Shown here piece after piece: positions 319 through 21,810 of a stretch of DNA of 24,000 nucleotides. The DNA lies in NCBI RefSeq assembly GCF_003390375.1, contig NZ_QUOT01000001.1:1927822-1951821 (forward strand), given 5' to 3'. This DNA is from Thalassotalea euphylliae. GTDB lineage: Bacteria; Pseudomonadota; Gammaproteobacteria; Enterobacterales; Alteromonadaceae. Position numbers and translations under genes: made by a program. Numbering within the stretch: position 1 is the first letter of the stretch; the number at the start of each line of letters is the position of its first letter. The notes beneath the pieces are model-generated. The model was not told where the DNA came from. It made no database searches and saw only the letters and a program-made list of their open reading frames with translations.

Positions 319-1974
319 ATGTTAAATTACTTAACTCTACTTCCAGTTAAAACCCGCCTGACAATTGGCTTTGGCGTTATCTTGCTACTAATGTTGGTGT
401 TAACCACACTTGGCATCCAGAAAGTGAATGTGATCGATCACACACTGACTGAGATTACCGATATCAACTCAGTCAAACAGCGATACGCAATTAACTATCG
501 TGGCAGTGTGCATGACCGCGCGATTGCTATCAGAGATGTAGCCAACGCAAGAAACAACGCCGAGGTTCAATCATTTGAACGTGAAATCAACCAATTAGCA
601 GGATTTTATCGAGAATCCGAACGCTCGATGCAGCAAATGCTTACCGAAGCCCCCAGCAATTTTAGTAGCCAAGAACGCAGTATTTTGGAAAAAATTAACC
701 GTATTCAAGCCCGTACATTACCGATTGTTGAAAACATTATTCAATTGAAAAAGAGTAATCAACTGAGTGAAATTAACAACTTAGTGCTTGAACAAGCCAG
801 ACCTGCATTTATCGATTGGTTAGCAGCGATCAACGAATTTATCGATTATCAGGAAGCGGCTAACCAAAAAGCAACGCCAGCCGCACGCGATGTTGCCAGT
901 GGCTTCCAAGAATTAATGCTCGCGCTTACTGCCGTCGCCTTAGTGATTAGCCTATTCGTTGGTTACCTGATTGAGAAAAGCATGCGCCGCTCACTTGGTG
1001 GTGAACCATACGAAGCGGCAGGTGCGCTAGCAAAAATAGCACAAGGCGATTTAACCAGTCAGGTAACAACAAATGATGCCAACAGTTTGCTTGCCTCACT
1101 CAACAGCATGCAAAGCACCCTAAGTGGCATTGTTGCTAATATTGTTAACGCCGCCGACCAACTAAGCCATCAGACCATGACGGTATCTTCAGGCTCAGAA
1201 CAAGCTTATGAAGCCGCGCAAAACCAAGCGTCATTAACCACAGATACCGCAGCTCGCCTAGAAACTATGCGCGACAACATAGACCAAGTATCGCAAACAG
1301 CATCTCGCACTGAAGAGAACTCAAGTTCAACCGCTAGCTATGCCAAGCAAGGTCGTGAAGCAATCAATGCCAGTGCCAAGGAAATGGAGCGTATTTCTGA
1401 TACCGTAAACGGCACGGTAGAGCAAATCAGACGCCTTGAAGAACGGACAAAAGAAATTGGCGGTATTGCCAATGTGATTAGCGGTATTTCAGAGCAAACC
1501 AACTTGTTGGCATTAAACGCCGCTATTGAGGCAGCGCGTGCAGGTGAATCAGGACGAGGCTTTGCCGTAGTCGCCGATGAGGTTCGTCAACTGGCTAAGC
1601 GTACCGGTGAAGCCACCGCCGAGATTGAAAATATGATCGGCCAAGTACAAGCTGAAACAGCGGCTTCCGTAGCAGCAATGGAAACAACTCAGCCACAAGT
1701 TGAAAATGGCCGTTCACTGACCTTGCAGGCAACCGATTTATTGGAAAATATTGAACAACAAGCGACAGATTCACTGGCGCGTATTCAAGAATTAGCCAGT
1801 GCTGCAAGCGATCAAGTAACCACCATAGGTGATATAGCTCATACTATGGAGCAAATTGCCCAAATGTCAGAAAACTCAATCACTTCGCTACAAGCGAACA
1901 ATAGTGCAACAAACTCACTACATGAATTGTCTGAACAACTAAAATCTGATGTGGGTTACTTTAAACTTAAATAA
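319..1974 (+). CDS. Methyl-accepting chemotaxis protein (TM, four-helix-bundle-type periplasmic sensor, TM, HAMP, MCP signalling domain)
   Basis: 551-aa ORF. N-terminal TM ([20 protein letters not shown]) and second TM ([20 protein letters not shown]). Canonical MCP hairpin-tip motif [38 protein letters not shown]. Followed by a strong terminator. Confidence 0.92.
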
Positions 1975-1993: not shown

Positions 1994-2023
1994 AAAAGGC
2001 CAGCAAAACTGCTGGCCTTTTTT
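1994..2023. terminator. Bidirectional rho-independent terminator between the convergent MCP and DUF2063 genes
   Basis: aaaaGGCCAGC-aaaact-GCTGGCCtttttt. 7-bp GC-rich stem at 1998-2004/2011-2017, flanked by an A-run and a T-run, so it works on either strand. Confidence 0.75.
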
Positions 2024-2067: not shown

Positions 2068-2859
2068 CTAACTCGCCGTTCTAAATTGATAGATCAGCCC
2101 TTGTTGTAACCAGGTTTGGATGCTTTGCACTGCAAACACAGGCACTTGCTCAGGCTCATGCCATGTTAGCAAGCCTTCACAAACGTCAGCAAAGTCTGCA
2201 CCTTGTAAGTACTGCTCAATCATATAGCGCTCGTCAGCTTCTAATGATCTAAATTCGGTTAAACGGTCGTGATTACGCCATAGCAACCAATGTTGCTCTT
2301 CGGCATGCTCAGTAGCTGGTGATGGTGCTTGATTACCTTTAATTGCCTGCCAACTGCGCACCGCATTATAACGCTCACTAAAGAGTTGCATGCTTGGGTG
2401 GAAACGTATTTGAATCGTCGGCCATAACTCAGGTGCAATTGCTGCTAGGTCTTGCGGCTGAGCACGCGCAATATCTGCAGCATCAAAGGCTGCCAATAAT
2501 AAGCGCTCGAAACGCGCTAATTCGGCTAATATCGGGTGCTCACTAAAAGGCGCATTATTGGCGAGATACTCTGGAATAAACTGGCAATAATGGCGCAATG
2601 AATCAAATTTTGATGGATAGGCATCAAGGTAGCCCGCAAACATTTGATCAAATAGCTCATCGCCTAAATACAAGCCAAGAATCTCGTGGTCGGTTTCAAC
2701 CACTTCTTGTAATCGAATACGATACGCGTTGCCATAAATAGACACGCGTTGCTCAGCGCTGATATTGCCTTGATCATTTACAACATGCTCGGCGAATGGG
2801 CCATTGCCATGCAGTAAAAAGTGCAGGAAGTCTTGTTGAATTTGTTTAAGAGAACTCAT
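2068..2859 (-). CDS. DUF2063-family protein, BufC/HvfC-like partner of MNIO RiPP maturases
   Basis: 263-aa ORF. N-terminal pattern typical of DUF2063: LQ..F...LL, then RVSIYGNAYRIRLQEVVETDHEILGLYLGDELFDQMFAGYLDAYPSKFDSLRHYCQFIPEYL. SD GAGGT lies 8 nt upstream of the ATG. Starts 15 nt after the DUF692 stop on the same strand. Confidence 0.8.
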   Translation of the reverse strand: MSSLKQIQQDFLHFLLHGNGPFAEHVVNDQGNISAEQRVSIYGNAYRIRLQEVVETDHEILGLYLGDELFDQMFAGYLDAYPSKFDSLRHYCQFIPEYLANNAPFSEHPILAELARFERLLLAAFDAADIARAQPQDLAAIAPELWPTIQIRFHPSMQLFSERYNAVRSWQAIKGNQAPSPATEHAEEQHWLLWRNHDRLTEFRSLEADERYMIEQYLQGADFADVCEGLLTWHEPEQVPVFAVQSIQTWLQQGLIYQFRTAS

Positions 2860-2874
2860 TTAACCAACCTCAAA

Positions 2875-3726
2875 CTAGGCTTCAATCTGGCTGCGAATAT
2901 TGGGAATATGCTGCTCAGCAATATTTCGTGCGATGTTTAGCTCTGCCGTTAAGTCAGCAAAACTGGGAATATTCGCATCGCGCTCAATCATAGTGCTTAC
3001 CGGGCCAAACAATTTTAATGCTTCTTTGTATAGTTGCCAGACAGGGTCTGGCACATCGTGATCATGGGTATCAACCACATAGTCTCCGAAGTCAGAATGC
3101 CCTGCCAAATGGAACTGCTGCACACGTTCTGGGTTTAACGAGCGTAAATATTCCATGGCATCAAAATCATGGTTGCGCGCACTTACGTAGATATTATTGA
3201 TATCTAATAACATGCGGCAGTCAGCTTGCTCACAAACTTCACGATAAAACTGCCATTCATTCATCTCGTCAGTTTTATACGTTAAATAGCTGGATACATT
3301 TTCCATCAGCATTTGACGGCCCATAAAGTCTTGTACTTGCTTAATGCGCTCAACAACGTGGGTTAACGACTCTTCTGTGTATGGCAGTGGCAATAAATCA
3401 TGACTGTTAACACCACCAACTGATGTGAAACAAAGGTGATCAGAGAACCACTCTGGCTGCACATCAGCAATTAAGGTTTTTAACTTGGTTAAATACTCTA
3501 TATTCAATGGATCAGTTGAACCAATCGACATTGACACCCCATGCATCACAATAGGGTAGTTTTCTCTGATTTGGTCAAGGTAATATCTTGGCTTACCACC
3601 AGCAACCATATAGTTTTCTGAAATGATTTCAAACCAGTCAACGTCTGGTTTTTGTTCAATCACATCATTGTAATGATTCGTTCGCAGGCCAAGGCCAAAT
3701 CCTAGAAATTTCTTCAAAATAGTCAC
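2875..3726 (-). CDS. DUF692 / MNIO-family (multinuclear non-heme iron oxidative) enzyme, BufB/MbnB-like RiPP maturase
   Basis: 283-aa ORF with the characteristic DUF692/UPF0276 N-terminus (GFGLGLRTNHYNDV...DWFEIISENYM....GGKPRYYLDQIRENYPIVMHGVSMSIGSTDPL) and later H/D/E-rich metal-ligand motifs (FSDHLCF, LMENVSSY, FHLAGHSD, VVDTHDHDV). The predicted start is GTG with a weak SD, so the exact start is uncertain. Confidence 0.85.
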   Translation of the reverse strand: MTILKKFLGFGLGLRTNHYNDVIEQKPDVDWFEIISENYMVAGGKPRYYLDQIRENYPIVMHGVSMSIGSTDPLNIEYLTKLKTLIADVQPEWFSDHLCFTSVGGVNSHDLLPLPYTEESLTHVVERIKQVQDFMGRQMLMENVSSYLTYKTDEMNEWQFYREVCEQADCRMLLDINNIYVSARNHDFDAMEYLRSLNPERVQQFHLAGHSDFGDYVVDTHDHDVPDPVWQLYKEALKLFGPVSTMIERDANIPSFADLTAELNIARNIAEQHIPNIRSQIEA

Positions 3727-3918: not shown

Positions 3919-3953
3919 CAAGGCTGTTTAGCGTAAGTAACTAAACAACCTTG
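3919..3953 (-). terminator. Stem-loop in the precursor-maturase spacer. Candidate partial terminator or mRNA-stabilising hairpin.
   Basis: On the transcribed (minus) strand: CAAGGUUGUUUAG-uuacuuacg-CUAAACAGCCUUG. This is a 13-bp stem with one G-U pair and a 9-nt loop, 35 nt after the precursor stop. No clean U-tract follows, so it is not a canonical intrinsic terminator. Confidence 0.4.
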
Positions 3954-3987
3954 TCTAAACATACTAACTAATACTTTTTAGTTAATA

Positions 3988-4467
3988 TTATTTGCCTACA
4001 GTACCGCCGATATCGCCACATGATTTCGCTGTGGTAGAAACAAAGCCTGTACCTTTACAAGTTGCATGGCCTGCACACGCGTTTTCAGCAGTTTTACAGT
4101 CGTTGTGACCTTTACAAACGTTAACACCGTAACAATGTACTAAGTTAGCCGTTGAAATTTGGCCAGTCCATTCATCAGAAACGGTACCGCCAACATCTTT
4201 ACACGCTTTAGTTGGCATGCCTACAAAGCCAGTACCTTTACAAGATGCTTGACCTGCACACGCGTGCTCAGCTGTTTTACAGTCATTGTGGCCTTTACAT
4301 ACATTAACGTCGTAACAGTGAACCATTTCAACTGTGTTAGTGTTTGTTGCTGCTACTGTGCTGCCAGCAGAACCTGAGTTAGAAGCAGTTGCACCACAAC
4401 CAACTAAAGTAGCTGCCGCTAATGCCATTGCTGCGCCTGATAAATGAGTCTTTGTTGCTTTTTTCAT
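3988..4467 (-). CDS. Cys-rich exported RiPP precursor, bufferin/DUF2282-like, with a lipoprotein signal peptide and two tandem core domains
   Basis: 159-aa ORF with SD GGAGA 4 nt upstream of the ATG. Signal peptide MKKATKTHLSGAAMALAAATLVG|C has an L-V-G-C lipobox. Two 49-aa repeats match the DUF2282 pattern CYG...K..NDC......CAG.........G.....C..(I/V)GG. First gene of an operon with DUF692 and DUF2063. Confidence 0.85.
   Translation of the reverse strand: MKKATKTHLSGAAMALAAATLVGCGATASNSGSAGSTVAATNTNTVEMVHCYDVNVCKGHNDCKTAEHACAGQASCKGTGFVGMPTKACKDVGGTVSDEWTGQISTANLVHCYGVNVCKGHNDCKTAENACAGHATCKGTGFVSTTAKSCGDIGGTVGK
3997..4326 (-). repeat. Intragenic tandem duplication (period 183 nt / 61 aa) of the Cys-rich core
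   Basis: aa 48-96 MVHCYDVNVCKGHNDCKTAEHACAGQASCKGTGFVGMPTKACKDVGGTV versus aa 109-157 LVHCYGVNVCKGHNDCKTAENACAGHATCKGTGFVSTTAKSCGDIGGTV. All 6 Cys align. The similarity is also visible at DNA level (4180-4326 versus 3997-4143). Confidence 0.9.
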
Positions 4468-4561
4468 AATTTCTCCGGGGCTTAAACGCAGTATTGAAAA
4501 TTGTTCAAATACCGCTTGTTTTTCATGAGTCAGGGCATAAGACCCGACACCGTCAAAAAAA

Positions 4562-4589
4562 TTGACACAAATTGTAAAAAAATTTTAAT
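4562..4589 (+). promoter_or_regulatory. Candidate sigma70 promoter in the divergent region, pointing toward the Aer-like gene
   Basis: TTGACA (4562-4567), 16-nt spacer, TTTAAT (4584-4589). This would give a leader of about 320 nt for the gene starting at 4919. Sequence match only. Confidence 0.3.
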
Positions 4590-4918
4590 CGAATAAAAGA
4601 TAAGCATAGTCGATACAACTAAATTTTGATGCCAAGGCTACTTCAACCTCCTTAAAAACAAGCATTAATGACATGCTGATACAAAAAAGCGATGTGCAAC
4701 AAGTGATGATTGCGAAGGATTTAAACTCGGAAAATTTAAGTGCAAATAGTCTAATTGCATCTATAGTTTAGTTAAGCCGAAGTTTAATAAGGTATTAGAT
4801 TTACTCCATTTTTATATCAGTTTTATTTAACCTCGTTGTTTTGCAGGTAGCTAAATACAACGCAATCAGACGTCCAATGAATTAAGCCTTTGCTTAACTC
4901 GCATTAAAGGAAGACAGC

Positions 4919-6490
4919 GTGAATAAAGACCGTCATATCAGCCAAAAAGAATATCAATTCCCTACCAGTCAACGACTTATCTCATCAACCGACAAGCGCG
5001 GCGTAATTACCCACTGTAACGAGGCTTTTGTCGAAGTTAGTGGTTTTACCTGCGACGAGCTTATCGGCAGTAATCACAACATTGTTCGCCACCCTGATAT
5101 GCCAAGTGTCGTGTTCAAAGAGATGTGGGAAACCTTACGCGCTGGCAAAATATGGATGGGAATTGTTAAAAATCGACGCAAAAACGGCGATCACTACTGG
5201 GTATCAGCATTCGTTACCCCGATCTTTGAAGGCGATGATATCGTTGGTTACGAATCAGTGAGGGTTAACGCTTCTGAGCCAGAAAAGCAGCGAGCTAGCC
5301 AAGCATATCAAAGGTTGCAACAAAATAAGTCCGCACTGCCAATTAGCGACACAATTCGCCACTTTACTCGGCAAATAAGACCTTTTATCGTCGGCGGCCT
5401 TGCCTGTGTTGGCGCTGGCTGGCTCACCAACTCTACAGAATTGATGCTCATTGGCCCAGCGGTGATGGTGCTGTGTGGATATTGGAGCATTAAGAGTCAG
5501 CAAAAGTCATGGTCATTGTTTTTAAATATTGCGCCCGATGCCTACAAAGATACTACCGTAGCGCAAACTTACTTTAATGCTAACCAAGCACAGGCACGTG
5601 CTAAGCTAGCGCTAATTTGCGAAATAGCCCGCGGCAGAACCGGCCTAACAAGAATTGACGACGCCTCTGTGGTGCTTGCCGAAGTTGCCGAAACAACCCA
5701 CTTTCAAGCAGAAAAAACCAGCCAAGTTATTGAACAGCAAGAAACAGCAGTACAAGTCATTGCTTCCGCTATTAGTGAAATGTCGAGCGCCATTCAAGAA
5801 GTTACCGAGCGTGTTGAAGGTAACGCAAGTAGCGCTAAAGAAGCTGCGGCAAGTGTAAATAACGGTAACCAGCAGGCTAAGCAAGCCGCAAAATCCATTG
5901 AGGAACTGAAAAATTCAGTGACTTCCATCGCCAGCACAGTAAAAGACTTAGCCGAATCGACAGAAGAAATTAATCAAGCGGCAACCATGATTTCATCCAT
6001 AGCGGAGCAAACTAATTTACTGGCCTTAAACGCCGCTATTGAGGCAGCCCGCGCGGGTGAGCAAGGTCGCGGCTTTGCGGTGGTAGCGGATGAAGTGCGC
6101 AGCTTGGCAATGCGTACACGCGAATCAACCGAAGAAATTCATAGCATTGTTAACAAGTTGATCACTCGCTCGCAAAAAGCTGCAGAAGTGTCTGAACAAG
6201 GCTTAGAAGAAGCGGAAAAAGGCATGCAAATTGTCGATGGCACCCGCATTGCTTTGGGTGAAATTAATAAAGCTGTCGATAATATTGCTGATATGACGAT
6301 TCAGATGTCGTCTGCCGTTGAAGAACAAAGCGCAGTAGCTGAGCATATTAACCAACAAGTGGGTGACATCGCACAAGGTGCATCAGTCGCTAAAAAGGCA
6401 GCAGAAGAATCGTTTGGCGCCAGCCAGCAGCTAAAAGATACCATCGCGAATGTCAGCTCATTGATTCGTCGCTTTAATACCTCAGCTTAA
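4919..6490 (+). CDS. aer: Aerotaxis/energy-taxis receptor, Aer-like (N-terminal FAD-type PAS, membrane hairpin, HAMP, MCP signalling domain)
   Basis: 523-aa ORF with a GTG start preceded by AGGAAG. The PAS segment ...[53 protein letters not shown] closely follows the E. coli Aer PAS signature (NMVRHPDMP...[15 protein letters not shown]). Central hydrophobic hairpin [14 protein letters not shown]...[16 protein letters not shown] tip [35 protein letters not shown]. Confidence 0.88.
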
Positions 6491-6575
6491 CTAACTTCAG
6501 GTTTACTCGCACTCGCAACTGGGTTTTAAGTGAGAAACGAGGTTTAAAGGCCGTTCGCCTAGAGGCAATTATCGC

Positions 6576-8492
6576 CTATTGGCTGCCGGCAGCTGATTGC
6601 TGACACTCTTGGTTTATAAGCGTGTTAAAGTCGTTTCTCGGCATGGGTTTGTATAAGAAATAGCCTTGTGCACTTTGGCAACGTTCACGCATCACATAGT
6701 CGAGCGTTGCCTGATCTTCCACCCCTTCAGCAATTACCGACAATTCCAAGTTGTGACCAATATCAATAATGGTGCGCGTGATCGCTGCACTTTGTTTATT
6801 GGTGGTAACTCCCTGTAAAAACGCCTTATCAATTTTCAAGTAATCAATGGGCAGAATTTGCAGATAACTAAATGACGAATACCCTTTGCCGAAATCATCA
6901 AGCGCAAACGCAATGCCGCGGGTTCGAAGTTGCTCCATCGTACGGCTGATGACTTCTTTATTTTCCATGAAAATAGATTCAGTTAGCTCAATAATCAATT
7001 GGCTGCCGCATTCATTGCTTTCATCACATTTACTCAATAGATAGCGAATAAGCTCGGCATCTTGAAATTCAATAATCGATAAATTAATCGCGAGTTTTAA
7101 ATGACTAAGCCCTTGGCTTTGCCACTGACTGATGCATTCAAACGCGGAGTCGATAGCCTTCTTACCGACTTGGCTGATAAGCCCTGTAGTTTCTGCGACC
7201 GGAATAAAAATATCGGGAGGAACAGAACTTCCGTCTGGCTTAAACCAGCGCATCAATATTTCTGCGCCGATGATCTCACCAGTGCTTAAATCAATTTTTG
7301 GCTGGAAATAAGGCTCAAGTTCATCTGCCTGCAAAGCTTCGCGCAATTCACGTTCAACTTTTACTTGCAACATCGCTTGCTGCTCTAGGCTTTGATCATA
7401 AAACTGGTAGTTATTTTTGCCTTGTGCCTTTGCTTGGTACATCGCCATATCGGCTTTCAAAATTAAGTGCTCAGCGCTGTTGTCGTCTTGTGGAAAGCAG
7501 GCAACGCCGATACTACAACTGACAAAGTGCTGACGGCCTGAAAGACAAAATGGTTCGGTTAAAATCGCCAGCAATTCCTCACACAGTGCGCGAATGTCCT
7601 GCTTACTTGCGACCGACTCCAGCAACAAGACAAATTCATCGCCACCTAGGCGAGCAAGTGTATCTTGCTCGCGCAAACGAGATTTAACACGTTGTACTAG
7701 TTCAATCAGTAATTCATCACCGGCTTTATGCCCTTCGGTATCATTAACGCGCTTAAAGTTATCCAAATCAATAAACAAAACCGCTAACAGCTGCTCTGAG
7801 CGCTTTGCTAATGCAAGTGCGTGTTCAACGCGATCTAATAACAAGTTGCGATTAGGCAGACCCGTCAAAGCATCGTGGTAGGCTTGGTGTTGAATTAAAT
7901 CTTCACTTTCTTTTTGCTGCGTAATGTCACGAAAACACCACACACGACCGATGAGTTTACCGTCAGCTATTTGTGGCAAAGAGCGATATTCAAAAAAGCG
8001 GTTACTGCTCAGTTCGATCACCCCGTTGATGTGGCGTGTTGGGTCTTCTTCTAGTTTTTGCTTAACTTGAACCGCTTGGTTTGGGTATTTAAATAATGAT
8101 AGTAGCGCCGACCAACGTTGATATTCAGTAACACCATTTTGCAGGAAAAATGTTTGCCCCATGCAATTGATGCTCATGACATTACCATCAACATCGTAAA
8201 CCACAATGTTTTCGCCCGTCGCATCAAAGGTAGCGTTGAGCACGCTTAACGATGATTGCAGTTGGTTTTTTGTTTCGCTGAGTTCGCCAAGTTGATTTTT
8301 TAGCAGCGCGTTGCGCTCATTGAGCTCTTCCGATATCAAAAATAAAGAGCGTTCAAGGGTGCTAACATCTTGCTCGTATCCAACATAAGCTTCAGACACC
8401 GCAGCAAAATAATCTTGGTGCTCTGTTTTTAATGAATCGTCAATGCCAAAGCGTTTAAGTTGGCGCTTGGCTAGCTTGTGTAACTCAGTCAC
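6576..8492 (-). CDS. PAS-GGDEF-EAL c-di-GMP turnover protein (diguanylate cyclase/phosphodiesterase)
   Basis: 638-aa ORF. N-terminal coiled-coil and PAS-like region. Intact GGDEF (RLGGDEF, 7632-7646) with an RxxD I-site (REQD) five residues upstream. EAL-domain motifs EILMRW, DDFGKGYSSFSYL, KIDKAF, EGVED and QGYFLYKP. GTG start overlaps the FIST stop by 8 nt. Confidence 0.9.
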   Translation of the reverse strand: MTELHKLAKRQLKRFGIDDSLKTEHQDYFAAVSEAYVGYEQDVSTLERSLFLISEELNERNALLKNQLGELSETKNQLQSSLSVLNATFDATGENIVVYDVDGNVMSINCMGQTFFLQNGVTEYQRWSALLSLFKYPNQAVQVKQKLEEDPTRHINGVIELSSNRFFEYRSLPQIADGKLIGRVWCFRDITQQKESEDLIQHQAYHDALTGLPNRNLLLDRVEHALALAKRSEQLLAVLFIDLDNFKRVNDTEGHKAGDELLIELVQRVKSRLREQDTLARLGGDEFVLLLESVASKQDIRALCEELLAILTEPFCLSGRQHFVSCSIGVACFPQDDNSAEHLILKADMAMYQAKAQGKNNYQFYDQSLEQQAMLQVKVERELREALQADELEPYFQPKIDLSTGEIIGAEILMRWFKPDGSSVPPDIFIPVAETTGLISQVGKKAIDSAFECISQWQSQGLSHLKLAINLSIIEFQDAELIRYLLSKCDESNECGSQLIIELTESIFMENKEVISRTMEQLRTRGIAFALDDFGKGYSSFSYLQILPIDYLKIDKAFLQGVTTNKQSAAITRTIIDIGHNLELSVIAEGVEDQATLDYVMRERCQSAQGYFLYKPMPRNDFNTLINQECQQSAAGSQ

Positions 8493-9624
8493 CCGACAGC
8501 TCTGATAACAAGGTGATGGTCATGGTTTGGTTATGCAAACCACAACGGCCAGCAGGCACAATGGGGGAAATTTCGCCATAAGAGTAAAAACCTGTCATCG
8601 CACAATTTACTGGTAAGGTTTCTTCAACAATTTCGAGCTCTTCTTCTACGCGCTGAGCCAGCACTAGCCTGCGGCCAACGCAGCTCATTAATATTGCCAA
8701 TTGAGGTTCTATTTGATCAAAAAAAGTGAGTGCTTGCTCAGCTGAATCTTGCGCACCATCGACAAGATGATCATAATTTGCGCGCATTAGTTGGCAACTT
8801 GCCCCCTCTGGCATATTGCCCGCAAAAATCATACTTTGGCGTTGTTCATCAATATTTAAAATCGTGCGCACCACAGGTTGCTCTTGCTGCTCAGTTTTCA
8901 TCGCAAGCGGAAAACGTAGCGCAGAGGCTGGCAAGTTTTCGGCATGCTCACCTAAAAACTCTTTATACAATTCGAGCGCTGGCTTACCGTCAATTTCAAA
9001 TAACTCATTATCTTCTGAACGAGTAATTTCGCGCATGGGGCCAAACTCTCGCCAACCGCCAAGGTGACCATGCCCAACCACTAACGCATCGCCGTATAAA
9101 CCAACGATGACAACTAAGCCACTGACTTTTTGGTCATTATGCCAAACAATGGTTTCTTGAAATTTAGCTGCATCCCCCGCTAACCCACCGGTAACAACAA
9201 CATTTTCTGGCAGCACGCCACTAATCCCAGCAATGAGCTCAGAGCCGTTAATTGCCTGACCGTCAGAAATAACAAAGGCGTGCTTAAGCCCTTGTGCTGG
9301 AATACCACGCGCTAACGCTTGGCCAAGTTGAAAGCTATTATTAAAATCACTCGCTAGCTGACTAAAAACTTCGACATTTACACGGTCAAATTCAATCGCT
9401 GTTAAACACAAGGTGTCATCGTGTAACTGCGCACCTTGTATCTCACCACTGGTGGTGCAGCCGACAATTTGTGCATTTGGGAAAGCTTGTTGAATATCAG
9501 TGTAAAGCGTTTGATCTAAGGCAAAGTCACGATTGCCATACGTCATCACCAACTGCGCAGACGAATGTTGGACAAGTAGTGTTGACCAAGCAGACGCTCG
9601 ATAAATTGACTGAAATGTTTTCAT
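8485..9624 (-). CDS. FIST (N- and C-domain) sensory protein
   Basis: 379-aa cytoplasmic ORF with FIST-like motifs (IVGCTTSGEI, VVVTGGLAGD, FYSYGEISP). Directly upstream of, and overlapping, the GGDEF-EAL gene. Confidence 0.75.
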   Translation of the reverse strand: MKTFQSIYRASAWSTLLVQHSSAQLVMTYGNRDFALDQTLYTDIQQAFPNAQIVGCTTSGEIQGAQLHDDTLCLTAIEFDRVNVEVFSQLASDFNNSFQLGQALARGIPAQGLKHAFVISDGQAINGSELIAGISGVLPENVVVTGGLAGDAAKFQETIVWHNDQKVSGLVVIVGLYGDALVVGHGHLGGWREFGPMREITRSEDNELFEIDGKPALELYKEFLGEHAENLPASALRFPLAMKTEQQEQPVVRTILNIDEQRQSMIFAGNMPEGASCQLMRANYDHLVDGAQDSAEQALTFFDQIEPQLAILMSCVGRRLVLAQRVEEELEIVEETLPVNCAMTGFYSYGEISPIVPAGRCGLHNQTMTITLLSELSGD

Positions 9625-12226: not shown

Positions 12227-12937
12227 ATGGAATGGGACGATATTTATCAGCTGATAAAATGTCAGCGAGAAGCCGAACTCGTCAATTTGTTTGAGCAACA
12301 GCTCATTAAAATTGGCATTAAAAGCTTTGGTTACTTTCAGTTTAACGCACAACACCCCAGTGAATTAAATGTGATTAGTACCTACCCTCAACAATGGGTC
12401 GATGAATATATCGCCAAGAACTACCTACAACTAGACACTACCATTCCACTATCTGTTGTGAGCAATTCGCCTGTGCCCTGGTCATACGCGAAACAATGCA
12501 GTAACGGCAAAGCGCAATTTGGCTTTTGGCAGCAGGTCAAAGCTCACAAACTCAATGCTGGCGCTTCAATACCACTAAGTAATAATAAACTTCAAATAGC
12601 TGGTTTAGGTTGCGCCATAGACAATGAGGCAGAAACTAAATGGCTTGAACAGTATGGCAAGCAACTTGAGATCACCTCTACCGTATTTCATCAAAAACTT
12701 TGTGCCTTAAAAAGTTGCCCAAATGTTGCCATTCAGCAGCTAAAATTAACCCATCGAGAAATAGAGTGCGGTAAATGGTTAAGTAATGGCTGCACATATA
12801 ACGAGGTCGGTAAAAAGCTCAATATTTCTGAACGAACAGCGAGATTTCATTTAGAGAATATAAAGCTTAAGCTGGGGGCAAAAAATAAGGAGCAAGTAAT
12901 ATCTAAACTCGTCGCACATCAGATCATTACTCCTTAA
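12227..12937 (+). CDS. LuxR-family transcriptional regulator with an N-terminal autoinducer-binding-type domain (LuxR solo within this window)
   Basis: 236-aa ORF. C-terminal GerE/LuxR HTH (LTHREIECGKWLSNGCTYNEVGKKLNISERTARFHLENIKLKLGAKNKEQ). N-terminal YPQQW57VDEY61...LD70T...PW85 matches the spacing of conserved AHL-pocket residues. Confidence 0.85.
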   Translation: MEWDDIYQLIKCQREAELVNLFEQQLIKIGIKSFGYFQFNAQHPSELNVISTYPQQWVDEYIAKNYLQLDTTIPLSVVSNSPVPWSYAKQCSNGKAQFGFWQQVKAHKLNAGASIPLSNNKLQIAGLGCAIDNEAETKWLEQYGKQLEITSTVFHQKLCALKSCPNVAIQQLKLTHREIECGKWLSNGCTYNEVGKKLNISERTARFHLENIKLKLGAKNKEQVISKLVAHQIITP

Positions 12938-12947
12938 CTATCAACAG

Positions 12948-13399
12948 TCAGGTGTTAGGCCTTTTAGGTACCACTATTGTTGAGACATAACTACAGACTT
13001 CTTGCTGCTCTTGATTTGTCGCAGACACAGCAATAGTAATCAATCCTTGTTCGGGCTTTGAACTAGACGCTTTAGCTTCAATGACCGTGACCTTAGCTTG
13101 CAAGCTATCACCAGGGCGAACAGCTTGATTAAATCGAAGCTTATCTACACCTGCGCCAATTAAGCCACCAGCAGGTTTAGCATCACTTGCCACAATTAAT
13201 TTCATGGTAATAGCTGCCGTATGCCAACCACTGGCCACTAACCCTTTAAAAAAACTACTTTTGGCTTGTTCTTCATTGGTATGAAATGGCTGCGGGTCAA
13301 ATTGCTGAGCAAATTCGATAATTTGCTCAGCAGTGACTTGATGTTGTTTGTTGTGAATACTTGGCCAACGACAAAATCTTCAAGAAATATTTGCTTCAT
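12948..13399 (-). pseudogene. MaoC-like (R)-specific enoyl-CoA hydratase / hotdog-fold dehydratase, interrupted by a frameshift
   Basis: N-terminus MKQIFLEDFVVGQVFTT... reads from ATG 13399 (SD AGGGA upstream) and hits TAG at 13238-13240. The rest (HQVTAEQIIEFAQQFDPQPFHTNEEQAKSSFFKGLVASGWHTAAITMKL...) is in another frame, open from 13379 to 12948. The two frames join in the ACAACAAACAAC tract near 13343-13354. Confidence 0.7.
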
Positions 13400-13430
13400 A
13401 AAAATCCCTTTAAAGCTTTACATTAGCAGT

Positions 13431-14174
13431 TTATTGCACCTTGTACTGCTGACGATATTTTTTGACTAATTTATGGGTGCATATACCACCAATGACCCCC
13501 GGCAGCACCCAAAACATAATCTGCCACTGATCACTTACAATATTGGCGAGTAGTTGGCGACCACCAAAAGCAAAAAACGCGGTGTAAGCCCCAATACCTG
13601 CTCCAATAATATGACGCAAATGCTGAATTAGCCATTCTCTTGGTTGAATAGACGGTTTAAAAATATAGTGCAGTAATTGGTAGCTATTCACCAAACACAA
13701 AGCGCTAAACACCTGCAATAAGACAAAAGAATATTTAGTACCTAAATAACCTACATAAGGCGAAATTACCGCCATAGTGAGAATTGGCAACAGGTGCGGC
13801 CATTGACGCAGTGCCTGTCGGTTTTCACGACATTTCAATACGAGTACCGAGTGGCGTGTACTGTTAAGCACCAGTAGCGACAACATCAGTAAGAACCAAG
13901 CAAACATTTCGCTCCACCACACCAGCTTATCGGCCTCGGCACCAGATAATGAAGATGAAGGATCTTTAATGGCTAACGGATCGAATAACACCATTAAAGT
14001 GATAGCAACCCCAGATAAACTGACAGCGAGCATCCCAAACTCAAACCACTTGCCTGACCGCTTGTGAAAATGCCCGCCTTTTTTGGCAATAACAGGCAAC
14101 CAAAAAGTGATTAATGACACACTGCCAACCACAATGTGTAAAAACAGTAAAACGGAATAAATTGAATAGTACAT
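13431..14174 (-). CDS. Polytopic inner-membrane protein of unknown function (about 6 TM)
   Basis: 247-aa ORF with repeated hydrophobic segments and positive loops (KKGGHFHKRSGK). Ends 31 nt upstream of the MaoC-like start on the same strand. No family recognised by eye. Confidence 0.6.
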   Translation of the reverse strand: MYYSIYSVLLFLHIVVGSVSLITFWLPVIAKKGGHFHKRSGKWFEFGMLAVSLSGVAITLMVLFDPLAIKDPSSSLSGAEADKLVWWSEMFAWFLLMLSLLVLNSTRHSVLVLKCRENRQALRQWPHLLPILTMAVISPYVGYLGTKYSFVLLQVFSALCLVNSYQLLHYIFKPSIQPREWLIQHLRHIIGAGIGAYTAFFAFGGRQLLANIVSDQWQIMFWVLPGVIGGICTHKLVKKYRQQYKVQ

Positions 14175-14232
14175 ATTTTCTCTCCCTAAGTTGTTGGAAG
14201 TAGTCTACGCACTGCTATTTGGCGACATCAGT

Positions 14233-14267
14233 GCCAAAGGTCACGATTTAAAAACATGACTTTTGGC
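14233..14267. promoter_or_regulatory. Imperfect inverted repeat in the divergent promoter region. Candidate operator.
   Basis: GCCAAAGGTCACG-N9-CATGACTTTTGGC, 11 of 13 positions complementary. Lies between the membrane-protein gene (-) and the kinase gene (+). A perfect TATAAT sits at 14310-14315, 27 nt before the kinase ATG. Confidence 0.3.
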
Positions 14268-14341
14268 CTATAGGTTTTTACGACTTAATCTGAAATAATC
14301 CTTAAAAGCTATAATCGTCAACAGGTTACCAATAAGAAGAT

Positions 14342-15505
14342 ATGTATAAAGCCATCGCTAAAATTAGCCAACACTGTGAGCGACTTGATGTTTTAGCTGT
14401 TGTGACTTGGGGGTTAGTACTTGCCATTTCACTGTACGCCTTACCTTCACAAACCGCCAACGTGCAAGCAAATACATTGGGGATTGCCATTTGTTTCGCC
14501 GCTTATATTGTCTGTTTTTTTGGTGCGACCAAACTTAATAAAGCGTCACTCTTTGGCCGTGCCCATCAAGTATTTTTGGGATTACAACTAGCGAGTGCAT
14601 TTGCCATTATGTTAATGCTGCCACTCGACTTTATTCCTATCCTTACCATTATTTGGGCTGGCATGCTGATTAATTTCTGCCGATTTGAAACGGCGTTACT
14701 CATTATTATTGCGCTAGTCGTCGTGTGGTTTAGCCTCTATGGTTGGCGTTGGCAAAAAGACCATGTGCTACTGACGGGCTCTCTCTATGGCACGTTTCAT
14801 ATTTTTAGCTTGCTGATGAGCCAACAAACACAAAAAGCCAAACAAGCGAGCGAACAAGCGAATGAACTTAACCGCCAGTTACTCGCCACTCAGCAATTGT
14901 TAACACAATCGACAAAGCAACATGAACGCACACGCATTGCTCGTGAACTTCACGACTTACTTGGTCATCATCTCACTGCGTTAACCATAAACCTGCAAGT
15001 GTCATCTCATTTATGTGAGCGAGATGGCAACTCAGCCGCGAAAGAAAAAGTTGATGAAAGCTATGCGCTTGCCAAACTCTTGTTAAGCGATGTACGCGAG
15101 GCGGTCAGCACAATTAAGGCGAATCAAGCTATTGACGTGCAGTCAGCAATTGAGGCGCTTGTCGCTGGCGTACCTGCACTCAAGGTACACCACTCGATTC
15201 AAACAGATATCCAACTTGATTCGTTTGAACTGGCAAATACCTTAGTTCGCATCAGCCAAGAAGCGATCACCAATACGCTGCGTCATAGCGGTGCTAGTGA
15301 ATTTTGGCTCTCCATTACCCAGCAACGAGACGAAATTCAGCTAAAAATTTATGACAATGGCACTGCTCCCGCGAAGCTAGTCGCGGGTAATGGACTGTCA
15401 GGTATTACAGAGCGTGCAGAACTTCTTGGCGGCACAGTAAACTTCAATCGTGAAAATGATGGGTTAACGATTGTGGTTAATTTGCCTAATCACATACGCC
15501 AATAA
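14342..15505 (+). CDS. Sensor histidine kinase, HisKA_3 / DesK-LiaS-like, with a multi-TM N-terminus and no obvious periplasmic domain
   Basis: 387-aa ORF. About 5 hydrophobic segments with short loops in the first 170 aa. H-box ERTRIARELHDLLGHHLTAL. HATPase motifs (EAITNTLRHSGA, DNG, GNGLSGITERAELLGG). Confidence 0.88.
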   Translation: MYKAIAKISQHCERLDVLAVVTWGLVLAISLYALPSQTANVQANTLGIAICFAAYIVCFFGATKLNKASLFGRAHQVFLGLQLASAFAIMLMLPLDFIPILTIIWAGMLINFCRFETALLIIIALVVVWFSLYGWRWQKDHVLLTGSLYGTFHIFSLLMSQQTQKAKQASEQANELNRQLLATQQLLTQSTKQHERTRIARELHDLLGHHLTALTINLQVSSHLCERDGNSAAKEKVDESYALAKLLLSDVREAVSTIKANQAIDVQSAIEALVAGVPALKVHHSIQTDIQLDSFELANTLVRISQEAITNTLRHSGASEFWLSITQQRDEIQLKIYDNGTAPAKLVAGNGLSGITERAELLGGTVNFNRENDGLTIVVNLPNHIRQ

Positions 15506-15545
15506 ATTTAGCATGCAACACCAAGAAAAAAGCGAGACTTTATAA

Positions 15546-16202
15546 GTGACTATAAAACTACTACTCGTAGACGACCAAACCTTAGTTAGGCAAGGAATTA
15601 AAAGCTTACTTGCGCTATCAGAAAAAGTCACTGTGAGCGCTGAAGCTAGCGATGGCACACAAGTATTAACGCAAGTAGCAGCACATAAGCCTGATGTGAT
15701 TTTGCTCGATATCTCTATGCCAAAAATGGACGGTATTGAAACTTTAGTGCAGTTAACGCAAGCGGGAATTGCTACGCCCGTTATTATTCTGACTACTTTC
15801 GACGATTCAGAGCTGGTTCTCAAAGGGATGCAAGCGGGTGCAAAGGGCTACTTACTTAAAGACGTATCACTGGAGTCACTTATTAGTGCCATTGAAGCGG
15901 TTCATAATGGGCAAACTATGGTGCAGCCCGCAGTTACAGAACGGCTGTTAAAAGGTATTACTAAAGTTAACGGTCTTAGTGATGATTTTACTGCACCTAC
16001 TCCGTTAGAGCCGCTGACTCCAAAAGAGATAGAAGTACTGAGACTGATGGCGAGCGGCTATTCCAACAAAGAAATATCAGGTGCCTTATTTAAATCTGAA
16101 GGTACCATTAAAAATCATGTTTCCAGCATTTTAACCAAGCTCGGCGTCAGAGATCGCACTAGAGCAGTATTATTAGCGATAGAGCAAGGTATTTTATGTT
16201 AA
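15546..16202 (+). CDS. NarL/LuxR-family response regulator (REC + GerE HTH)
   Basis: 218-aa ORF. REC motifs LLLVDDQ, DVILLDISMP, LTTF, KGYLLK. C-terminal LTPKEIEVLRLMASGYSNKEISGALFKSEGTIKNHVSSILTKLGVRDRT. GTG start 40 nt after the kinase stop. Confidence 0.9.
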   Translation: MTIKLLLVDDQTLVRQGIKSLLALSEKVTVSAEASDGTQVLTQVAAHKPDVILLDISMPKMDGIETLVQLTQAGIATPVIILTTFDDSELVLKGMQAGAKGYLLKDVSLESLISAIEAVHNGQTMVQPAVTERLLKGITKVNGLSDDFTAPTPLEPLTPKEIEVLRLMASGYSNKEISGALFKSEGTIKNHVSSILTKLGVRDRTRAVLLAIEQGILC

Positions 16203-19899: not shown

Positions 19900-21810
19900 C
19901 TAAAGCTTAAACTGACTAACCACTTTGGTTAGGTTACTATTAGCACTTGCTAATACTGTGGTTGCGCCGTTCACTTCATCGCTGCTGGCCGCAACCTGCT
20001 CAACCATGTCACTAATGGTCACCATGTTGCGATTAATCTCTTCAGAAACCGAAGACTGCTGCTTAGCTGCAGCGGCAATTTGAATGTTTAAGTCATTAAT
20101 ACCGCCAACTGAATTCACGATCTGATCAAGGTTTTCAACCACTAAATGGGTTTGTTCTGAGGCTTCAACACAGCTTGCTTTTGTCGACTCAATACCATTG
20201 ATAACACTTTGCGAACTTGCATTTAAGCGGTTAATTGTATTGTGAATTTCAGTGGTACTGTCTTGTGTTCTTGACGCTAGTGCTCGCACTTCATCAGCAA
20301 CTACCGCGAAACCTCGGCCTTGTTCGCCAGCACGTGCGGCTTCAATTGCCGCATTCAAGGCAAGTAAGTTGGTTTGCTCTGCAATATCACCAATCACTTT
20401 CAAGACAGCCGAAATATTATCAATTTCTTGTCCCATTTGATTAATTTGGCCTGAAGACTCTTCAACTTTCTCGACCAAATCGCTGACATTTTGGGTCGCA
20501 CCTGAAACCACTTGCTTAGAATGTAACGCTTGCTCGTTAGTGCTCGTGGTCACATTCACTGCGTTTTCAGTGTTATTGGCAACGTCGGTTGAACTTGCAC
20601 TCATTTCATTCAGTGCAGTTGCCACTTGGCTAGTCTCAAGACGGTGCGCTTCTAACACTTCGTTGTTACTTTGACGCAATGCCTGTAGGTCATCGACACT
20701 GGTGGCAATGTACTGACTAGATTCAGCGATATCACGCATCATTGTTTGTAAGTTTTGGATAAAGGTATTGATGTCTCTTGAGATTTCACCCAAGTCATCT
20801 TCACGCTCTACTTTCAAACGCTTGGTTAAATCACCGTTACCATTTGAAAGCTCATTTACCGTTTTCTTCAACGCTTCAACTGGGCGGTAGGCGTAAGAAA
20901 GCAATACGTATATCGCGATAGTCGATAATACAATTAACACAAAGGTGGTCAGGCTTGATGAAACTAAAGAGTCACCCAGAGCGCTATACATGACTGACTT
21001 ATCAATTGCGACCAACATAAACCAAGTAGTGTCTTGGGTAATGGTTACCGTCTCAAAGTAAGCGATTTTATCAATACCTAGTAACTCGAACTCATGCATG
21101 TTTTGCTGCTTTGACAACATGATTTGTTCAAGCTCAACTAGCGGCTCAAAGTCTGACAATCGCGATTCACCCGGCACATCAACCTCGCCAGTAGACGAAA
21201 TCGTCAAGCCGGTATCATCATATAGCGCCGCGATTGAGCCAGGGAAGGTAGCACGCTCAATAAATGGGTCTAATGCTCTAATTGCGATATCGGCAGCTAG
21301 CACCCCTTTAAATTGGCCACTTTGATATAACGGCGTAGCTAAGGTCACCATTAACTGGTTAGAAGCGTTATCTTTGTAAATCTTAGTCACTGTTGTCGAC
21401 GCTTGTCGCTTAGCTTGCTGATACCAAGTGCGCGAGCGTGGGTCTGCGTTACCAGCATTGAACTCACCGTGCTTGTGGCTTAGTCCCATGCCATCTTCAT
21501 AGCCAACAATGATATCGGCAGCAGAAATAGAACGACCAAGGCTGTTTAAGTAACCTTGGATTTTCACTTTGTCGGTAGCGCCTGCAAATAGTTCAGCTGA
21601 TTGCTCAATGCCTTGTTTGATGCTCGACATGTAATTTTGAACTTTCGCGCCATTACTCGACATTTGTAGCGTGGCATATTCATCAACGTTTGCCTTCACT
21701 AATCCAGACAGTTGATAGTAAGCGGAAGTAGCTAAGATGATCATGGAAATTGCTAATAAGCTAATCGCAACCATGACAATGCGGGTTTTGAAATTAAACT
21801 GCTTTTTCAA
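19900..21810 (-). CDS. Methyl-accepting chemotaxis protein with a double-Cache (dCache_1-like) periplasmic sensor
   Basis: 636-aa ORF. N-terminal TM, a periplasmic region of about 260 aa (YEDGMGL..., [23 protein letters not shown]), second TM, HAMP, and MCP tip [38 protein letters not shown]. The predicted start is TTG at 21810, so the exact start is uncertain. Confidence 0.9.

Follow-up and report, generated by a model that had tools for sequence, protein, structure and literature searches.

The window analysed here, a 24-kb stretch of the Thalassotalea euphylliae genome, carries on its minus strand a three-gene operon that begins with bufA2 (3988..4467), an open reading frame with an ATG start, taken from the list of open reading frames and assigned by its match to the family model NF050166, which encodes a two-domain bufferin precursor of 159 amino acids. 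A Shine-Dalgarno sequence, GGAG (4473..4476, minus strand), can be read 6 nt upstream of the ATG, and the CGGAGAA around it is also kept in the 84%-identical locus L001. An exact-sequence look-up identified the product as WP_115999003.1 / A0A3E0U457 of T. euphylliae, which NCBI names "BufA2 family periplasmic bufferin-type metallophore" and UniRef "Lipoprotein"; the accession has no match in the supplementary tables of one key bufferin paper. The NCBIfam model NF050166 (Cu_RiPP_BufA2) matches the protein in two stretches, with a score of 136.9 bits (cut-off 60; E = 1.9e-40). Immediately downstream on the same strand lie bufB (2875..3726), encoding a 283-aa MNIO bufferin maturase recognised by NCBIfam NF050167 (MNIO_BufB; 388 bits, cut-off 310) and Pfam PF05114 (383 bits), and bufC (2068..2859), encoding a 263-aa DUF2063 partner recognised by Pfam PF09836 (54.7 bits, cut-off 27.2). 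BufB does not reach the cut-offs of the HvfB (284 bits vs 360), ApyH, MbnB and ChrH models, and BufC has a weak, sub-threshold match to HvfC (29.2 bits vs a cut-off of 142). A strong, bidirectional intrinsic terminator (12-bp stem; 1994..2021), called by the terminator scan directly after bufC, closes bufA2BC. The operon has no DoxX gene, an absence that is typical of buf2 clusters (PMC11626156, PMC12452194). The model match, twelve cysteines in the family spacing, a predicted Sec-type signal layout and the linkage to bufB and a DUF2063 gene without DoxX are all traits of the BufA2 family, and the gene can be assigned with high confidence, for identity and architecture taken together, as the bufA2 of a bufA2-bufB-bufC operon.

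The family was named Buf_6/12Cys in its founding paper after members with six or twelve conserved cysteines (PMC11626156). Its founder, bufferin 2 of Caulobacter (BufA2, CCNA_03001; PMC11626156), shares with the window protein the NF050166 match, the six-Cys core and an operon of MNIO and DUF2063 genes without DoxX, but it is a single-domain protein whose signal is of the signal peptidase I (SPI) type, yielding a soluble periplasmic peptide, whereas the window BufA2 combines two domains with a lipobox. Buf1 proteins (DUF2282, PF10048) share the enzyme pair, the thiooxazole chemistry and Sec export with Buf2, and their predicted fold is reported to be very similar; they differ in having four cysteines rather than six and in usually being accompanied by DoxX and SigF/NrsF genes, and the PF10048 model misses the window BufA2. 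An earlier, sequence-only reading of this DNA had described each core as a DUF2282 pattern with two extra cysteines. This description does not hold: PF10048 gave no match to the window BufA2 at E ≤ 0.01 or even at E ≤ 10, which rules out membership of DUF2282 (Buf1), and six or twelve cysteines are a trait of the NF050166 (BufA2) family itself. A precomputed PF10048 match is present in only one of the 120 nearest homologue clusters.

The mature part of the protein is built on two cysteine-rich cores, domain 1 at aa 48-96 (4180..4326, minus strand; Cys 51/57/63/70/76/89) and domain 2 at aa 109-157 (3997..4143, minus strand; Cys 112/118/124/131/137/150), which lie 61 aa apart. They are identical at 37 of 49 amino acids and 112 of 147 nucleotides, with their six cysteines in perfect register, so that the tandem repeat proposed from the sequence, with its 61-aa period and aligned cysteines, is confirmed. 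A repeat search recovered the same feature as a direct repeat of 143 nt at 78% identity with a spacing of 183 nt (61 codons), whereas Tandem Repeats Finder reported no repeat in bufA2, which would be expected when fewer than two diverged copies are present. A lysine follows three of the four central cysteines in each domain (in domain 1 at Cys 57, 63 and 76). In an alignment of 89 two-domain homologues (A1), all 12 core cysteines are invariant, as are H50, H60 and H121, and H111 is at least 90% conserved. The histidines had been put forward as possible additional metal ligands, a suggestion that needs correcting: at the position of H68 (in the AEHAC motif), at least 90% of homologues have Asn, so H68 is not a conserved ligand candidate, and H134 is a majority residue only.

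The 12 residues between the cores (aa 97-108; 4144..4179, minus strand) include D98, W100 and G102, each at least 90% conserved among the 89 homologues, and form a predicted beta-strand (aa 95-104) with a pLDDT of 83-86, the highest confidence in the AlphaFold2 model. Judged from this conservation and the predicted structure, the segment is not a loose linker. The model as a whole is of moderate confidence (mean pLDDT 66) and contains a strand-loop-strand-helix unit that occurs twice, with the scaffold and interdomain strand at 70-87, the Cys-rich loops at 55-60 and the N-terminal tether below 50 (over aa 20-42). A profile search of PDB sequences with BufA2 found no related solved structure, and Foldseek found no meaningful match in the PDB for the model (pLDDT 66). 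Equivalent domains are equally conserved between proteins (mean identity 0.76 for D1-D1 and 0.77 for D2-D2), and D1 and D2 of the same protein show a mean identity of 0.775, against 0.731 for D1 of one protein and D2 of another among the 89 homologues. The greater likeness of domains within one protein hints at co-variation or some concerted evolution. As a comparison for the age of the duplication, the within-protein value (0.775) is about the same as that of equivalent domains across species (0.76-0.77).

Among 5.8 billion proteins searched there were 989 matches, of which the best 120 clusters were inspected: all encode proteins of 149-164 aa with 12-14 cysteines and are, thus, all two-domain, and 112 of them have a lipobox. 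In contigs from one genome per species, 367 stretches encode relatives. The best 80 of these loci span Shewanella, Colwellia, Cognaticolwellia, Halioglobus, Amphritea, Marinicella, Pleionea, Psychrobium and other genera, and the bufA2-bufB-bufC order is kept in 79 of them; Pseudoalteromonas is found among the protein matches. The clade is widespread in marine Gammaproteobacteria, so functional results obtained on one member would generalise broadly. Repeated replacement of the lipobox by an SPI site is seen inside the two-domain clade, in most Shewanella and in Motilimonas.

At the N-terminus, a pattern test predicts a signal peptide (aa 1-23; 4399..4467, minus strand) with an n-region, MKKATKTH, and an h-region, LSGAAMALAAATLVG, ending in the lipobox L21-V22-G23-C24 (4396..4407, minus strand), of which Cys24 is the predicted lipidation site and first mature residue. 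The rule applied was of the PROSITE PS51257 type ([LVI][ASTVI][GAS]C, with the cysteine at positions 15-35 and positive residues in the first seven positions), and the protein conforms to it, with its cysteine at 24, lysines at 2, 3 and 6 and six uncharged positions before the box; the lipobox recognised in the sequence-only reading is accordingly upheld. Cys24 is kept in at least 90% of the 89 aligned homologues, and G11, A15, A17 and A19 of the signal peptide are nearly invariant. The eight of the 120 nearest clusters that have no lipobox lack its cysteine, and most of them end instead in an Ala-rich sequence resembling a signal peptidase I site (GTAQAQA, GQAMAA). The lipobox is, thus, either kept or exchanged for an SPI-like end, a near-dichotomy that would be expected of real signal peptidase II (SPII) substrates. 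The sequence-only reading was right in taking the product for an MNIO-substrate precursor with an SPII-type lipobox and a duplicated six-Cys core, and a single MNIO/partner pair is encoded immediately downstream.

The competing possibility is cleavage of the leader by signal peptidase I, e.g. behind A26-T27-A28, which would remove Cys24 with the signal peptide and release a soluble periplasmic two-domain bufferin. An A26-T27-A28|S29 motif does lie 2-4 residues past Cys24, and a small-x-small triplet occurs within eight residues of the cysteine in 66 of the 112 lipobox homologues, but such triplets are expected by chance in a linker rich in Ala, Ser and Gly. SPI-type ends are found in most of the eight lipobox-free clusters and in about 22 of the best 80 loci, mostly from Shewanella (about 56 of these loci have a lipobox), so a soluble form is clearly viable in relatives. 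Against this, Cys24 in a canonical L-[AVM]-G-C box persists in 112 of the 120 nearest clusters, whereas the positions behind the cysteine vary freely (e.g. CNAT, CAST, CSNN), and the UniRef name of the exact sequence is "Lipoprotein". SPI cleavage of the window protein is, on this evidence, improbable, and cleavage by signal peptidase II is preferred.

In Escherichia coli, lipoproteins in which the residue at position +2 is other than Asp are sorted by the Lol system to the outer membrane by default. The window protein has Gly at this position, rather than Asp, which points to the outer membrane as its destination; among the 112 lipobox homologues, Asp occurs at +2 once and Glu once. Membrane tethering would, therefore, most likely be to the inner leaflet of the outer membrane. 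The predicted anchor is separated from the first core by a tether rich in Ser, Thr, Asn and Ala (aa 25-47; 4327..4395, minus strand), which varies in sequence and length and gives no consensus in the alignment.

The combination of a lipobox with tandem cores had been raised as a possible new sub-architecture. About 10% of Buf2 precursors have been reported to contain 12 cysteines as duplicated domains and about 16% to carry predicted lipoprotein signal peptides, with the suggestion that they might be membrane-anchored (Microbial Genomics 2025, PMC12452194), and bufferins are also listed among predicted RiPP-lipoproteins (PMC13056109). The same survey modelled a 12-Cys Buf2 of Cognaticolwellia aestuarii, WP_077285100 (Fig. 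3h, PMC12452194), which corresponds to one of the loci retrieved here (L069) and is 62% identical to the window protein. Like the latter, it has two six-Cys domains (156 vs 159 aa) and a bufA2-bufB-bufC operon, with a lipobox that reads L-M-G-C rather than L-V-G-C; the two proteins differ in the linker and in a few non-conserved residues (e.g. H68), and are alike in architecture. A homologue survey had been proposed as the check on novelty, and in the survey made here the two-domain lipobox form proved to be dominant and annotated in its clade (120 of 120 clusters two-core, 112 of 120 with a lipobox). Each supposedly new feature is, thus, already in print and their combination is the norm of the clade, which refutes the claim to novelty: the two-domain lipobox BufA2 architecture has been published and annotated before, and marine bacteria commonly have it. 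The best explanation of the window gene is very probably that it encodes the precursor of a bufA2BC operon belonging to the known 12-Cys, lipoprotein-signal subtype of Buf2 (Buf_6/12Cys). This changes little for the field, adding one more already-annotated member to a published bufferin subtype, and it makes the window bufA2 a clean candidate for experiments on two-domain, lipobox-bearing bufferins.

Other MNIO substrates resemble the window protein in part. DybA, an MNIO-modified RiPP of the chryseobasin-like type, is likewise an MNIO precursor with an SPII lipoprotein leader, and its triacylation has been shown by mass spectrometry (PMC13056109, 2026); unlike BufA2, it is processed by a ChrH-type MNIO, which forms a macrocycle and a hydantoin on CPACGMG, it comes from Bacteroidota/Neisseria and it is not a thiooxazole metallophore. 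In the oxazolin/fontiphorin/bulbicupramide group, one MNIO/DUF2063 pair processes many cysteines along a single precursor, whereby the doubt raised earlier, as to whether one MNIO could serve two cores, is answered, since these EGKCG-repeat substrates carry many sites per enzyme pair. They differ from BufA2 in their short 5-mer repeats on a helical or unstructured peptide and belong to another NCBIfam family and MNIO subgroup, the window BufB staying below the cut-off of the HvfB model. The Microbulbifer mmr and Fontimonas fon clusters were considered as closer relatives and ruled out on the same grounds, as their precursors are of the EGKCG-repeat type and not Buf2.

In Caulobacter vibrioides, BufB and BufC are necessary and sufficient for the conversion of cysteine to 5-thiooxazole, and Buf2 shows a mass shift of -4.03 Da on each of its four central cysteines, with CysI and CysVI unmodified and probably forming a disulfide (PMC11626156). 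As only the four central cysteines are modified there, eight modified cysteines and two disulfides would be expected in the window protein, and the figure of up to 12 processed cysteines that had been suggested for it is probably too high. By analogy with Caulobacter Buf1 and Buf2, the iron enzyme BufB would act with BufC in the cytoplasm, oxidising the four central cysteines of each domain to 5-thiooxazoles at eight predicted sites (C57, C63, C70, C76, C118, C124, C131 and C137). Export through Sec would be followed, if the lipobox is read correctly, by the transfer of diacylglycerol to Cys24 by Lgt, cleavage between G23 and C24 by signal peptidase II and N-acylation by Lnt, and the +2 rule (Gly) suggests that the Lol system would then deliver the protein to the outer membrane, on its inner leaflet. 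The outer cysteine pairs (C51-C89 and C112-C150) would close as disulfides in the periplasm, and the flexible tether of about 23 residues would hold two copper-binding modules sequestering excess periplasmic Cu(I)/Cu(II). Taken as a whole, this sequence of maturation, export and copper binding appears reasonably probable, on the grounds of analogy and sequence features.

The first step could be questioned, as sizeable fractions of the genes for bufferin precursors have no MNIO gene linked to them (PMC12452194), and one or both domains might go unmodified by BufB/BufC, leaving a plain Cys/His-rich lipoprotein with metal bound through its thiols and disulfides. The MNIO and partner genes nevertheless follow the precursor directly here and in 79 of 80 relatives, and the two domains are equally conserved, as their between-protein identities indicate. 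BufA2-type substrates have been described in later work as "Cys-Lys" precursors, with an Asp in BufB2 proposed to read the Lys, and these Cys-Lys motifs, the proposed determinants of recognition by BufB2, are at equivalent positions in both domains. An unmodified domain is, thus, a very improbable outcome, and modification of both cores by BufB/BufC is retained as the preferred reading.

Copper-homeostasis genes and copper-responsive regulators were sought in the 24-kb window and none was found, and a sigma-70 scan of the 450-nt region upstream of bufA2 (4468..4918) found no promoter, so the link to copper comes from homology alone. The protein might, thus, be anchored and modified as proposed and yet serve in something other than copper detoxification: the binding of another metal, copper delivery to envelope cuproenzymes, a redox function or signalling. 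Several observations fit such a role. The neighbouring genes, none of them for copper resistance or sensing, encode chemoreceptors, a GGDEF-EAL protein and a putative FIST protein; Buf2 clusters lack the SigF/NrsF genes of Buf1 clusters, and MerC-Buf2 fusions suggest that some members handle other metals (PMC12452194); and a related marine MNIO cluster, mmr (Microbulbifer), was not expressed under copper stress. The only characterised Buf2, that of Caulobacter, is nevertheless induced by copper, as is the Buf1 operon of the same organism (PMC11626156), and Buf1 is copper-selective, binding Cu 1:1 with very high affinity through the sulfur and nitrogen atoms of its thiooxazoles. The putative metal-binding residues are, moreover, invariant in the clade of the window BufA2. 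A role other than copper detoxification, therefore, seems unlikely, and copper sequestration is favoured.

Noncoding sequence on both sides of bufA2 shows some conservation. The last ~130 nt before the gene are identical in two T. euphylliae strains; in a three-way alignment of the upstream region, a T-rich block is the only conserved feature, and the L001 locus also has the CAATTTTTTT block that lies about 80 nt ahead of the start codon. Directly after the bufA2 stop, in the interval between bufA2 and bufB, two stable RNA hairpins are predicted (3919..3988, minus strand), with stems at 3961-3988 and 3919-3953, the latter of 14 bp, and a minimum free energy of -31.1 kcal/mol (z = -4.8). They have no U-run, and the terminator scan did not call them. 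The first 90 nt after bufA2 fold with z < -2 in 68 of 77 related loci (median -3.5), and the hairpins may represent a conserved element, acting as attenuator or as transcript stabiliser, by which the ratio of precursor to enzyme is set.

Whether the lipid anchor and the duplicated domain belong together was addressed in a sample of Buf2 proteins made up of the top 150 among 720 representatives at 50% identity, of which 14 had two cores and 122 had one. A lipobox was present in 10 of the 14 two-core forms and in 25 of the 122 one-core forms (odds ratio 9.7, p = 2e-4, not corrected for phylogeny). This enrichment and the conserved, predicted-structured interdomain segment could be taken to mean that lipid anchoring and domain duplication are functionally coupled, in which case bivalent copper buffers tethered to the outer membrane would form a functional class of their own. 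This idea is put forward tentatively, and we consider it possible rather than probable. If true, members of the class would differ from soluble single-domain bufferins in having a localisation or capacity not available to the latter; such a coupling was not found stated in the bufferin literature examined.

Further observations concern relatives and neighbouring genes. One 500-aa representative (P0170) has 24 cysteines and seven stretches matching the window BufA2, and is possibly a Buf2-like protein of many domains; its length exceeds the maximum of 367 aa given for Buf2 (PMC12452194). The L001 locus (NZ_JAGHQT010000002.1), labelled 'Endozoicomonas sp. G2_1', encodes BufA2, BufB and BufC proteins that are 84%, 90% and 77% identical, respectively, to those of T. 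euphylliae. No other genus has a locus as close, so the genome may be mislabelled or the operon recently transferred. The operon is surrounded by signalling genes (319..1974, 4919..9624, 12227..16202 and 19900..21810), which encode three methyl-accepting chemoreceptors, a GGDEF-EAL protein, a LuxR-type autoinducer-binding regulator and a HisKA_3/LuxR two-component pair, and a neighbouring open reading frame of 379 aa (8485..9624) encodes, to judge from its sequence, a putative FIST-domain protein.
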